A stretch of DNA of 64,000 nucleotides from Armatimonadota bacterium. GTDB lineage: Bacteria; Vulcanimicrobiota; JACPDS01; JBDRKI01. The DNA is taken from positions 51,598 through 115,597 of the forward strand of contig JBDRKI010000036.1 of assembly GCA_043814095.1 (NCBI GenBank). The letters run 5' to 3'. Numbering within the stretch: position 1 is the first letter of the stretch; each line of letters starts with the position of its first letter. The position numbers and the translations under genes were made by a program. Of the stretch, positions 55,488 through 64,000 are shown piece by piece. The notes under the pieces were generated by a model that was given only the letters and a program-made list of their open reading frames with translations, was not told where the DNA came from and ran no database searches.

Positions 55488-56954
55488 ATGATGGCAACTG
55501 ATATGGAGTTAATGGAAAAAATTACTTCTTTAAGCAAAAGACGCGGTTTTGTCTTCCCGGGTTCCGAGATATACGGGGGGCTGGAAAGCACCTGGGATTA
55601 CGGCCCACTCGGCGTGCTTCTTAAAAATAACGTTAAAGCCGCCTGGTGGAAGGCTGTTGTCCAGCAGAGAGATGATATGGTTGGTCTGGATGCCAGTATT
55701 TTAATGCATCCTACCGTATGGGAAGCATCGGGTCATGTTGAAGGATTTTCCGATCCCATGGTTGACTGCAAGCAGTGCAAAAAGAGATTCAGAGCCGATG
55801 ATCTTGAAGAAAATAAATGTCCCGAATGCGGCGGTGAGTTTACCGAGGTAAGAAAATTCAACCTTATGTTTAAAACATTCATGGGTCCCGTGGAAGATCA
55901 GGCTGCGGTTGTATATATGAGGCCTGAAACGGCACAGGGCATTTTTGTTAATTTTAAAAACGTTTTGAACGTAGCAAGAAAAAAACTCCCCTTCGGCATA
56001 GCGCAGATAGGCAAGGCGTTCCGCAATGAAATTACTCCGGGCAAATTTACTTTCAGGACAAGAGAATTTGAACAGATGGAGATAGAATATTTTGTAAATC
56101 CAAATAAGTTAACTGAATGTCCATTCATTGAAGAGTTTTTAGATTATGAGTTAATAGTTTACAGTGCTCAGATGCAGGATAAGAAAGAAACACCTCAGAA
56201 GATGAAAATTAAGGAATTGATTCAAAAAGAAATAATAAAAACAAAATGGCATGCGTATTGGTTAGCCTTTGAACATAAGTGGTTTACTAGCCTAGGTGCA
56301 AAGGCCGATAATTTCAGAATAAGGCAGCATCTTCAAAAAGAGAAAAGCCATTATGCATTAGATACCTGGGATCTGGAATATAAATTTCCTTTTGGATGGA
56401 AAGAACTTGAAGGATTAGCAAATAGAACAGATTTTGACCTTAACCAACATATCAAACATTCTAAAACTGATCTAAGTTTATTTGATGAAGAGACCAAGAA
56501 GAAGATTATCCCTCATGTGATATGTGAACCAAGTTTAGGTGTAGAGAGAAGTTTTTTAGTCTTTATGTTTGATTCTTACGAAAATGATCCTTTGAGAAAT
56601 AATGTTGTATTAAAGTTAAGTCCAAAATTAGCCCCTGTTAAGGTGGCTATTTTTCCACTAGCGTCCAATAAGGAAGATGTTGTCAATAAAGCAAAAGAAG
56701 TTTTCGATATTTTGAAAAAAGAGTTTGCATGTCAATTTGACAGGAGCGGATCGATTGGCAGAAGATATGCAAGACAAGATGAGATTGGAACACCATATTG
56801 CATAACAATTGATTTTGAAAGTTTAAAAGATAATAAATGCACTATAAGGGATAGAGATAGCACTAAACAAGTAAGGATTGAAATTGACAAAATCACTGAA
56901 TTAATAAAAAGATTATTAAATACTGAGCTTTCCTTCAATGAATTAGGGGATTAA
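55488..56954 (+). CDS. glyQS: Glycine--tRNA ligase (alpha2 type); apparently chimeric, bacterial 5' part and archaeal 3' part
   Basis: RRGF, [50 protein letters not shown]; style change near 56,090. Confidence 0.93.
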   Translation: [488 protein letters not shown]

Positions 56955-56955
56955 A

Positions 56956-57360
56956 ATGCAGATTAAAGATTTACAAGCCAAACAAGGAAATGTTGATGTT
57001 ATAGTTGATGTTATCGATGTATCTGAACCTAGGGAATTTCAGAAATTTGGGAAAACAGGTAAGGTTGCAACGGCAATTGTCAAAGATGAAACTGGAGATT
57101 GTAAACTTTCTTTATGGAATGAAGATACTGAAAAGGTAAAATCAGGAGATAAGATCCATATTACTAATGGTTATGTCAGCGAATGGCAAGGCGAGATACA
57201 ATTAACTACTGGAAGAATGGGCAAGATTGAAGTTGTAAAAGAAGGAGATAAAGAGATTAAGAAAGATAAAGAAGGAGAGAAGCACGAATTTGAAGGTGCT
57301 GCAGAAAAAGAAGAAGAGTTAAGTGAAGAACCGGTTACTGATGAAGAAGAGATTGAGTAA
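56956..57360 (+). CDS. Archaeal single-OB-fold ssDNA-binding protein (SSB/RPA) with acidic tail
   Basis: KDETG..LSLWN..ITNGYV.EWQGE.QL..GR.G; Glu-rich C-terminus. Confidence 0.85.
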   Translation: MQIKDLQAKQGNVDVIVDVIDVSEPREFQKFGKTGKVATAIVKDETGDCKLSLWNEDTEKVKSGDKIHITNGYVSEWQGEIQLTTGRMGKIEVVKEGDKEIKKDKEGEKHEFEGAAEKEEELSEEPVTDEEEIE

Positions 57361-61516: not shown

Positions 61517-63808
61517 TTATTTCATATTCATCTTTTTAACTGAACGCTTAAACCATTCATTCCAATCAAAAAATATTCTTTTTGAATCTAATGAACCAAC
61601 TTCATCTTTTATTTTATCTGAAATCTTATGGAATTGATCATTTGCATTGACTACATGATCTGCTTCTAGCAAGTCTAGCATTTTTGATCTTTTTGCGATA
61701 TCAACAGTAGTTTCTTTAATCTTTGCTCTTAACAATATATTGTCCCAGACTGCATCCCAATCTCCAGCCCATTCTTTTACATTTCCTGCGATTGCCTTAA
61801 GGATCTCGCTCTCACCATTAATAAGATCATCACTAGGTTCAAGTTGATCAGTGCTTGCCTGATATTTCATAAGGTCAGAGAAACCGTGTTCTAACAAAGG
61901 ATCCTGTTCCCATTGTTTTCTAACCTCAGTAATCTGGGTTACTCTTCTCCAACGATGTAAGCCATCTGCTGACCTTATTGGATTTGCAACTATAATGATG
62001 TCAGTTGCTTTAAAGCTCGTTCTTGGAACCTGTAAATCGTTAACTACCCTGTCATAAACACCATAGGGGGAATCACCATGGATTGTTCCTGCAACAACAT
62101 TTGCCATTGCTCCAATCCTCATTGCTTCATATAATGCAAGAGCTTCTTTGCTTCTTATCTCCCCAATTATCAATGCTGAGTCGCCCATCCTTAATGTTGT
62201 CCTTATCCCTTCATCAGCTGGAACTTCTGCTGTGCCTTTTGTCATTGCAGCTGCAACCTTCATTGTTTGAATATTATATCCCAACTTTCTCAGGGAATTT
62301 GTTGGAAGTTCTAAAGTATCTTCAATTGTTATAATACGGTATTTTCGCATCAATTCAACAAGCAATGATCCAAGCAAAGATGTTTTACCTGCTGACCTGG
62401 TTCCTGCAACTATCAAGGTTCTTGAACCGTCTACAAGGAAACTCAATATACCTGAGGCCAAAGGAGTTATCATCTCATTATTGATAAATAAAGGAAGTGT
62501 CCATGGTTTGTCACGATGTCGCCTAAAAGCATATGCAAGACCGGTCGGATTTAATGGAGCAGATATCACTGCAACTCTTGTATTAGCTCCTGGAAGAGAA
62601 AGTTCAGTATCTAAAATCGGATTTGCTTCATCTAATGGTCTTCCTGAAATCATCCTTAGCTTTGATGCCCATGATTCTGCTTCAGTCCTTGTTGGGATGA
62701 TATTTGTTTTACAATCTGTATAATCCTGGTGAACCAAAAAGATAGGGATTTCGCCCATCGGAGAATTGATGGTTACGTCCTGGACTTTTTCATCTTTCAT
62801 CAACACTTCAATCAAACCAAAACCAACAGTATACCTAACTAATACGTCAGTTAATTCACTTATCTCCTTTGAGGTAACCCTCATGTTCCTAAGACCAGTA
62901 AGTTCTTCAATAAGATCTCCACCAATATTTGAAAAGACCTGCCTCATACGCTCAGGATCAACAAATTCCGATCGTTTTGGCTTGTATTCGCCCATTATCT
63001 TTCTTGCAGTATCTAGAACTTCATATTTTTCTTCAGAAAGCCTAAATTCAGGAGGCATGATGTGATAAAGATATTGAACAGAATCTGGCAACTCAAAAAT
63101 TGTAACTTCAGTATCACCAACCATATAGTTATCAACTTCCTCTGCGTCGTGGGGGTAGGTTGCCATCAACCTAGTGAACATAAAATCAGGCCGTATTGAA
63201 GGGCTAAAGATATGCCTGTATACTTCCCTATCCCCTACTTTGAATCCTGCAAGACGGGGTTTTGCTAAGGCCACCATCCTTGTTTTTTCAAGCATTGATA
63301 GTATATGATCAAGAACTTTTATATACGTAGTCCTACATTTATAGATAGATTCATCGATGGTTTTTTCTAACTGGATACGTTCTTCCCTTGCGATACGTTT
63401 GAGTTCAACATATGCTGCTAGAGGATCGCTTCTTAGGAGGTTTGAGATTATATTATGAATACTCGAATACCATGCATTTGCATTAGGCCTACAAGAAGAA
63501 TCAGAAAATAATGCAGAGTAACCAAGCAAGTCTTTTCTTTTAATCAATTGATTGTATAATTTGGCTATCTCTTGTATTAATTGTGTCTGGTTATAATCAT
63601 ATTCATAATTTCTTTTTTGTGTAAAAACAATCTTTGTTATATTGCCTGATTCTAACAACATATCACAGGTTTTTGACATACAGACAGGATCATCTTCTAC
63701 AGACGGGACTCTTGTATATTCTTCTAAATCAACAATTAGGATATTGTTTTCCCCTTCCCTGATTACATCATAGCTAAAAGGTCCTTTTTTTGGATTGAAT
63801 AATGCCAT
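61517..63808 (-). CDS. Archaeal type II/IV secretion ATPase (VirB11/CpaF/FlaI family)
   Basis: Walker A GTRSAGKT, IEDTLEL, LRMGD, Walker B LIIGEIR, GTIHG. Confidence 0.9.
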   Translation of the reverse strand: MALFNPKKGPFSYDVIREGENNILIVDLEEYTRVPSVEDDPVCMSKTCDMLLESGNITKIVFTQKRNYEYDYNQTQLIQEIAKLYNQLIKRKDLLGYSALFSDSSCRPNANAWYSSIHNIISNLLRSDPLAAYVELKRIAREERIQLEKTIDESIYKCRTTYIKVLDHILSMLEKTRMVALAKPRLAGFKVGDREVYRHIFSPSIRPDFMFTRLMATYPHDAEEVDNYMVGDTEVTIFELPDSVQYLYHIMPPEFRLSEEKYEVLDTARKIMGEYKPKRSEFVDPERMRQVFSNIGGDLIEELTGLRNMRVTSKEISELTDVLVRYTVGFGLIEVLMKDEKVQDVTINSPMGEIPIFLVHQDYTDCKTNIIPTRTEAESWASKLRMISGRPLDEANPILDTELSLPGANTRVAVISAPLNPTGLAYAFRRHRDKPWTLPLFINNEMITPLASGILSFLVDGSRTLIVAGTRSAGKTSLLGSLLVELMRKYRIITIEDTLELPTNSLRKLGYNIQTMKVAAAMTKGTAEVPADEGIRTTLRMGDSALIIGEIRSKEALALYEAMRIGAMANVVAGTIHGDSPYGVYDRVVNDLQVPRTSFKATDIIIVANPIRSADGLHRWRRVTQITEVRKQWEQDPLLEHGFSDLMKYQASTDQLEPSDDLINGESEILKAIAGNVKEWAGDWDAVWDNILLRAKIKETTVDIAKRSKMLDLLEADHVVNANDQFHKISDKIKDEVGSLDSKRIFFDWNEWFKRSVKKMNMK

Positions 63809-63961
63809 TTACTTTGTCCTCTTTTTGTTTTCTTCTTTAAGATGTTCAAGCGCAATCTCAATTAGATGAGATTTATTCCTATATTTTCTCGTGTCTTCTA
63901 CTTCCTTGTTTATCCAAATAATAAGCTCTTCTTCAATTGTTGCAGAAATGGGTCGTTTCAT
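63809..63961 (-). CDS. Ribbon-helix-helix (CopG/NikR-like) small regulator, 50 aa, absent from the ORF track
   Basis: Own translation MKRPISATIEEELIIWINKEVEDTRKYRNKSHLIEIALEHLKEENKKRTK*; stop abuts ATPase ATG. Confidence 0.75.
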   Translation of the reverse strand: MKRPISATIEEELIIWINKEVEDTRKYRNKSHLIEIALEHLKEENKKRTK

Positions 63962-64000
63962 ATTATAATATATATTTTATATTATATTTCATTATTTAAT

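Follow-up and report, generated by a model that had tools for sequence, protein, structure and literature searches.

A glycyl-tRNA synthetase gene crossing from bacterial to archaeal sequence in a groundwater Armatimonadota genome is very probably a product of assembly

Contig JBDRKI010000036.1 (hereafter C36) of assembly GCA_043814095.1, from an Armatimonadota bacterium described as a groundwater bacterium, carries near its right end an open reading frame (ORF) for glycyl-tRNA synthetase (GlyRS), the gene glyQS. We analyzed a stretch of 64,000 nucleotides of this contig (C36 51598-115597; hereafter the window, whose positions are used unless stated otherwise); C36 is 115,597 bases long, so the last base of the window is also the end of the contig. 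The bin to which it belongs consists of 129 contigs (2.50 Mb); its completeness is put at 98.97% and its contamination at 1.38%. At window position 56096 the GlyRS frame passes from host-bacterial to Woesearchaeota-like composition and ancestry, and all of the remaining 7.9 kb of the contig is archaeal, in synteny with Woesearchaeota genomes. We conclude that C36 is very probably an inter-domain chimeric contig made by the assembler. It has four of the features by which a chimera is recognized, namely an abrupt change in composition, two sides that come from different organisms, a breakpoint in a short exact shared repeat, and a displaced continuation of the host gene. An earlier sequence-only reading of this DNA had inferred a misassembly through a k-mer shared by a bacterium and an archaeon, and that inference is now supported by the discordant halves of the gene, the synteny of the flank, an overlap of k-1 nucleotides with a second contig of the bin (C87), and an independent public contig.

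Results

Composition Changes Abruptly inside the glyQS Frame

The GlyRS frame is open over its full length of 488 amino acids (55488..56954, plus strand). It scores 635.5 bits against NCBIfam NF003211 (cut-off 312) and 557 bits against TIGR00389 (cut-off 243), and bears the Pfam domains tRNA-synt_2b and HGTP_anticodon. By the curated family models it falls within the class II alpha2-type GlyRS, to which both source genes belong, the assembled ORF being a composite of them. The sequence-only reading had described a gene that becomes AT-rich and CG-poor after a conserved string of 35 nt. We located this string at 56061-56095, where it encodes 11 residues, and the change within the gene is borne out by a drop from 4.62 to 0.81 CG dinucleotides per 100 nt. 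The 5' part (55488-56093) has a GC content of 0.441, a GC content at third codon positions (GC3) of 0.455, 28 CG, and a ratio of observed to expected CpG (CpG o/e) of 0.99, and the corresponding values in the 3' part (56094-56954) are 0.321, 0.261, 7, and 0.33. The flanks break likewise, with a CpG o/e of 1.06 in the six genes on the left versus 0.50 in the five genes on the right.

We then compared the 7,896 bases from 56104 to the contig end (the end block) with 250 other non-overlapping segments of the same length, drawn from the contigs of the genome that are at least 7.9 kb long. The end block has a CpG o/e of 0.49 and a GC content of 0.344, against 1.035 and 0.393 in the whole genome, and its CpG o/e is reached by none of the 250 segments (minimum 0.748, mean 1.05, standard deviation 0.10). 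The tetranucleotide comparison that the sequence-only reading had proposed gives the same picture, as the distance of the end block from the genome mean (0.0261) is larger than that of any of the segments (maximum 0.0239). GC content alone is less extreme, being equally low in 2 of the 250. Because the end block lies beyond all segments in both CpG and tetranucleotide usage, the switch is real and far outside the genome's own variation. No other 7.9-kb segment of the bin among these 250 shows a similar archaeal-like composition.

The Two Halves of the Protein Group with Different Lineages

When 30 genomes of relatives were queried with the whole GlyRS protein, 19 were found to carry a GlyRS of matching type; in these, residues ~4-212 match at 64-81% identity and residues ~252-484 at 40-51%, with the middle unmatched. 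Further comparisons were made with the loci of the nine best same-phylum bacterial relatives (L004-L012) and the 47 best archaeal-type loci (L013-L059), taken from species-representative genomes, and with the eight archaeal-type proteins that stand at the top of the search with the C half. Residues 1-202 share 77-83% amino acid identity with all nine same-phylum loci and 50-59% with the eight archaeal-type proteins, and residues 203-488 share 41-48% with the nine bacterial relatives and 61-68% with the eight, which are of Woesearchaeota or Nanoarchaeota. The same pattern is seen in the two half-protein searches. That with the C half, which spanned 5.8 billion proteins, found proteins up to 69% identical among the matches listed, and of those listed with an organism name 14 of 17 are assigned to Woesearchaeota, Nanoarchaeota, or Nanoarchaeia, the other three having bacterial labels. 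The best 47 loci are archaeal-titled in 45 cases; bacterial loci rank next, with at most 53% identity and without the first 27-61 residues of the query. With the N half, all 119 matches listed besides the window's own are 427-458 amino acids long, which is the bacterial length, and the closest among them (P0121, 441 amino acids) is 89% identical.

A single alignment of 82 full-length sequences was split into the two halves, and a tree was constructed from each; eight loci whose genes were incomplete or short had been left out (L020, L021, L032, L033, L034, L035, L040, and L068). As the sequence-only reading had anticipated, the two halves part company. The N half falls in a clade with the nine same-phylum relatives, with a support of 96 in the Shimodaira-Hasegawa-like approximate likelihood ratio test (SH-aLRT), and the C half falls in a set of 28 rows (SH-aLRT 97) made up of 25 archaeal rows, 2 bacterial-labelled rows, and the hybrid itself. 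In the approximately unbiased (AU) test, a tree constrained to group the C half with the nine relatives and the GlyRS part of C87 is worse by 117.7 log-likelihood units and is rejected (p-AU = 2.4e-7); one constrained to group the N half with the 39 archaeal-titled rows is worse by 221.6 units and is rejected as well (p-AU = 1.0e-6). Since the halves group with different lineages, the switch stands; a placement of both in one lineage, which would have meant no switch, was not what we found. One detail of the earlier description has to be revised: the segment CPFIEE...KWHAYWL, taken there for an insertion gained by the gene, is a normal segment of Woesearchaeota-type GlyRS and is present in all eight archaeal-type proteins inspected. 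A search of the genome with the hybrid recovered no archaeal-type GlyRS 5' half. In the public protein collection the hybrid is a singleton, its 90% cluster (P0001) having one member on one contig.

Woesearchaeota-type full-length GlyRS also occur on records with bacterial names, which include L019 (a 9.8-kb contig of Candidatus Tenebribacter davisii), L022 (a 3.2-kb contig of a Deltaproteobacteria bacterium, in which an archaeal gene for a protein like the single-stranded DNA-binding protein SSB lies directly 3' of the GlyRS gene), P0021, and P0077. These records look like archaeal contigs placed in bacterial metagenome-assembled genomes (MAGs). The Woesearchaeota-type locus is also present on several MAGs titled "uncultured Methanosarcinales archaeon".

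The Native 3' Half Lies on a Second Contig of the Bin

A second GlyRS 3' half was found in the bin, on contig C87 (4,687 bases), whose end matches the region of the switch. Read in reverse, C87 is identical to window 55956-56095 over 140 nt and diverges from 56096 onward. Its GlyRS part is in frame and has 5.12 CG per 100 nt, like the 5' part of the window gene (4.62) and unlike the 3' part (0.81). It is 83% identical (237 of 286 positions) to P0121, the closest full-length bacterial GlyRS, without gaps and with a common end, and it is 57-64% identical to the nine relatives, with which it forms a clade (SH-aLRT 100). Thus the bin holds one glyQS 5' half and two 3' halves, and the half on C87, the native continuation, completes a gene colinear with the closest bacterial GlyRS. 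Residues 1-202 of the window and the C87 part together run colinear with P0121 at 89% and 83% identity, respectively. In contrast, the assembled ORF of 488 amino acids has a longer, archaeal-type segment from residue 203 onward and is 60% identical to P0121 overall, with 53 gap positions. Beyond GlyRS, C87 carries an ORF of 79 amino acids and then a gene for a pyruvate phosphate dikinase-like protein of 940 amino acids; in the relative L004 a homologue of the latter (67% identical over 244 amino acids) directly follows glyQS. The 79-residue ORF (C87 reverse strand, 880-1116) is accompanied by a second short ORF before the dikinase-like gene, and by eye the pair may resemble an antitoxin-toxin pair of the HicB/HicA type.

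The length of the overlap is informative about how the contigs were built. The bin has 258 contig ends; an exact match to another contig spans 141 nt at 110 of them and exactly 140 nt at 14, which indicates a de Bruijn graph whose final k was 141. The terminal 141-mer of C87 consists of the 140 shared bases and the first differing base, as a pruned branch would leave it. The archaeal end of C36 has no overlap of at least 20 nt with any other contig of the bin, and the contig stops inside the archaeal block. Further exact overlaps of 140 nt followed by divergence were seen with the interior of C36 outside the window, by C11, C24, C27, and C76 at about C36 29,935-31,958 and by C52 at 555-694; these are further branch points, possibly due to a repeat, a mobile element, or further misjoins.

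Independent Contigs Delimit the Shared Stretch

Parts of the stretch were found in four public sequencing runs (X1-X3 are cited here), in all cases as Logan contigs with a depth of ~2-4, a depth that does not distinguish the two sides and from which no conclusion on habitat or abundance is drawn. None of the 32 listed pieces bridges the junction, 146 further pieces being outside this listing. Record 9 of X2 (403 nt) fits window 56064-56447 without a mismatch, and its first 19 nt do not fit the window. To the left of 56061, the loose ends of three X2 and four X3 contigs give a consensus that reads in frame as ITPRDFLFR(S). This belongs to the archaeal-type motif (25 residues) and not to the bacterial one (23 residues). 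Because C87 is identical to the window up to 56095 and the X2 record only from 56064, the two genomes share merely 32-35 nt. Exact runs of 32 and 29 nt with the window were found at this spot in 2 of the 47 other archaeal-type loci, which makes a long shared run here plausible; the maximum in 42 bacterial loci is 20 nt. The exact 35-mer itself occurs in 3 of 92 loci, all of them the genome's own, so the partner archaeon is not among the species examined. Among the pieces listed, X3 contains exact pieces of the left side and right-side pieces with 3-5 mismatches, X2 contains the right side only, and X1 has exact pieces of both. The pattern in X2 and X3 gives a weak hint that the two sides have different holders.

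The Right Flank Is a Woesearchaeota-Type Gene Cluster

The features around and beyond the junction are listed in table 1.

Table 1. Features of the window at the glyQS junction and to the contig end (window positions)
Feature	Position	Strand	Evidence
140-nt exact overlap with the end of C87 (k-1 for k=141), graph branch point	55956..56095	+	Contig-end comparison
Bacterial glyQS 5' part, including the shared stretch	55488..56095	+	Identity to relatives; clade with SH-aLRT 96; CpG o/e 0.99
Shared stretch, 32-35 nt, encoding 11 residues; very probably contains the false join	56061..56095	+	Divergence of C87; public contigs
Woesearchaeota-like glyS 3' part	56096..56954	+	Identity; set with SH-aLRT 97; AU test; CpG o/e 0.33
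SSB/RPA-like OB-fold protein, 134 aa	56956..57360	+	Pfam PF21473, PF01336; NCBIfam SSB and replication factor A models below cut-offs
tRNA, 128 nt, with D-loop insert of ~34 nt and long variable arm	57404..57531	+	Rfam RF00005, 39.8 bits, E = 9.3e-6
LAGLIDADG-domain protein, 238 aa	57505..58221	-	Pfam PF14528
Predicted membrane protein, 726 aa, of an archaeal pilus-like cluster	58510..60690	-	Homologues beside the ATPase in archaeal-type loci
ORF of 271 aa with hydrophobic N-terminus (possible pilin in the sequence-only reading)	60700..61515	-	ORF call
FlaI/TadA-type secretion/pilus ATPase, 763 aa	61517..63808	-	Pfam PF00437; NCBIfam FlaI and TadA models below cut-off

Two of the archaeal hallmarks named in the sequence-only reading, an OB-fold SSB-like protein after glyS and an archaeal pilus-type ATPase, were recovered with Pfam models, the latter as a FlaI/TadA-type protein, the NCBIfam models scoring below their cut-offs in both cases. 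In the 47 archaeal-type loci, homologues of the SSB-like protein were found in 19, directly 3' of glyS, and those of the LAGLIDADG protein in 4. The 726-residue protein has homologues of 49-69% identity in 12 loci, where they adjoin the ATPase, and no match in any of the 30 bacterial relatives or to a Pfam or NCBIfam model. The ATPase is matched over most of its length at 60-76% identity in 10 loci, and in an eleventh there is a terminal match of 39 residues. The ORF of 271 amino acids, named a class III pilin in the sequence-only reading, has no Pfam or NCBIfam match and no tblastn match in the 47 loci, and it is left unassigned.

The order glyS, SSB, (LAGLIDADG), 726-residue protein, ATPase recurs in the same orientation in three Woesearchaeota loci (L013, L017, and L041) at 57-76% amino acid identity. 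By gene, the identities are 65-67% for the glyS 3' half, 57-70% for SSB, 67-69% for the 726-residue protein, and 75-76% for the ATPase. In L017, glyS lies at 8001-8852, SSB at 8952-9332, the LAGLIDADG gene at 9523-10164, the homologue of the 726-residue protein at 10563-12731, and the ATPase gene at 12993-15281. These loci differ from the window in two respects: they have their own archaeal glyS 5' half, of the PRDFLFR type, where the window has a bacterial half instead, and they are without a detectable counterpart of the 271-residue ORF. Of seven proteins from the left flank of the window, only one (UPF0047) was matched in the 47 loci, once and elsewhere in the locus.

The tRNA gene between the SSB-like and LAGLIDADG genes is interrupted. 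In the RF00005 alignment 38 bases lie in the D-loop where the model has 4, and from this alignment the gene is read as a putative tRNA-Leu(UAA). CCA is not encoded, a T-run follows the gene on its 3' side, and a TTTAAAT motif was read from the sequence ~27-34 nt on its 5' side. ARAGORN failed to detect the gene. The sequence-only reading had proposed a tRNA with a bulge-helix-bulge intron; the tRNA with a large D-loop insert stands by its Rfam match, and folding did not bring out the bulge-helix-bulge, the minimum-energy fold giving neither a cloverleaf nor a clear motif of that kind. The adjoining LAGLIDADG protein is free-standing and has two domains; the last 27 nt of its ORF overlap the 3' end of the tRNA on the opposite strand. 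A GGTGA motif, also named in the sequence-only reading, stands 8-9 nt ahead of its start. Its homologue in L017 is 64% identical and occupies the same position, and three further loci have homologues of 32-39% identity.

On the left side of the window, the CCA-encoding tRNA that had been cited as a bacterial feature is present, as tRNA-Leu(GAG) at 43164-43248. An ORF with a Mur_ligase_M domain also lies where a Mur ligase had been named (~36249-36776), but this family matches two archaeal control genomes as well and is not diagnostic.

Discussion

How the Join May Have Arisen

The most coherent account of these results, and very probably the right one, is an assembly error at a conserved stretch. 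The bacterium and a co-occurring Woesearchaeota-like archaeon have alpha2-type GlyRS genes that are identical over 32-35 nt. In an early round of assembly at small k (k ≤ 35), the paths of both genomes would merge through this stretch, and after pruning, the bacterial entry would be left joined to the archaeal exit, the wrong exit having been kept. In MEGAHIT, the contigs from each round serve as input to the one that follows. An early contig carried over in this way may have supplied the 141-mers that span the junction in the final graph. The outcome would be C36 as it now stands, with 107.7 kb of bacterial DNA, the shared stretch, and then 7.9 kb of archaeal DNA to the end, and the true continuation (the glyQS 3' half, a small ORF, and the pyruvate phosphate dikinase-like gene) would have been left behind as C87. 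No hybrid enzyme would exist in any cell. The frame runs on across the join only because both genes translate the shared stretch in one phase and into one peptide.

Errors of this kind have been described. According to a preprint, interspecies chimeric contigs occur in 444 of 640 near-complete MEGAHIT MAGs in data from CAMI (the Critical Assessment of Metagenome Interpretation), with conserved regions named as a cause (bioRxiv 10.64898/2026.10.15.759294); metaMIC (bioRxiv 10.1101/2021.06.22.449514) is related work on chimeric contigs in short-read metagenome assemblies. C36 resembles the chimeras of the former report in that two genomes are joined at a conserved stretch and in that the foreign part enters a near-complete bin without shifting the quality figures based on marker genes. 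C36 differs from them in that the join crosses domains and lies in phase inside a coding sequence, giving an intact-looking ORF that was accepted by a gene caller (P0001), and in that the breakpoint could be fixed to 35 nt without reads. The latter was possible because the bin holds the displaced native branch.

Several points weigh against an assembler-made join or soften the evidence for it. The join was judged from contigs (Logan, depth ~2-4), and that no piece bridges the junction is a statement about the 32 listed pieces only. The consensus of the loose ends has an agreement of 0.79 and pools several related archaea. In the tree analysis, the 39 archaeal-titled rows do not form one clade in the free tree, and part of the cost of 221.6 units is therefore unrelated to the hybrid. 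The 141-mers that span the join would have come either from contigs assembled in an earlier round or from rare chimeric reads. Finally, 141 is the largest default k of MEGAHIT, and from this value the assembler is presumed to be MEGAHIT.

Alternative Explanations

The last but one of these points leads to the alternative that survives best, although we regard it as unlikely: a physical chimera formed before assembly. During library amplification, by PCR jumping or in whole-genome amplification, an incomplete strand of the bacterial glyQS could have acted as a primer on the archaeal glyS within the 35 identical nt, and the product would then have been sequenced and assembled correctly. A graph with k of 141 needs 141-mers that span the junction, and chimeric reads would provide them; moreover, from what is generally known of PCR chimeras, an identity of 35 nt is long enough for template switching. 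Such events are rare at any one site, however, and the chimeric molecules would have to outcompete the true path, which exists as C87. The carry-over of contigs from small k explains the same data without extra assumptions.

It is less probable still that the join is real, the other possibility raised in the sequence-only reading, that is, that a minority of the cells carry Woesearchaeota DNA acquired by a crossover in the glyS stretch, with a hybrid GlyRS and at least 7.9 kb behind it, and that the native allele on C87 belongs to other cells. The join leaves the reading frame open, and by its family-model scores the hybrid is a complete GlyRS, but the native 3' half is in the bin, its k-1 overlap stopping exactly where the switch occurs, and the native allele has not been replaced. 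Run X1 has exact pieces from each of the two sides, with comparably low depth; against this, a public contig shows the archaeal side joined to archaeal 5' sequence, and among the pieces listed X3 matches exactly on the left with 3-5 mismatches on the right, and X2 matches on the right only. The contig ends inside the archaeal block without coming back to bacterial DNA, and no other contig of the bin overlaps this end by 20 nt or more. The archaeal block keeps its own composition without visible adjustment to the host and carries genes of no evident bacterial use, such as the interrupted tRNA and the archaeal pilus genes. An identity of 35 nt is also marginal for recombination of the RecA type. 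That there is no switch at all, the gene belonging to one lineage with an unusual, rapidly evolving 3' half, is refuted by the split trees, the AU tests, the synteny with Woesearchaeota, the break in composition, and the second 3' half on C87, and we give it practically no credence.

Implications

A real join would be a striking example of homologous recombination between domains inside an essential gene. With an assembler-made chimera as the very probable explanation, what follows concerns the genome record. In a bin with a completeness rating of 98.97% there are 7.9 kb of archaeal DNA, with an interrupted tRNA gene and with genes for a pilus-type ATPase, an SSB-like protein, and a LAGLIDADG protein. 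The correction would be to cut C36 within 56061-56095 (C36 107658-107692), to drop the distal part, and to take C87 as the continuation of glyQS. Other cases may be sought without reads: the telltale contig end coincides with an internal stretch of another contig for exactly k-1 nucleotides and differs from it entirely beyond that point. A hybrid GlyRS of 483-488 amino acids, in all probability fictitious, is already in a public collection as the singleton cluster P0001. The finding is a clean-up item and not a biological discovery; as long as P0001 stands uncorrected, it is easily mistaken for evidence of gene transfer between domains or of a mosaic aminoacyl-tRNA synthetase.

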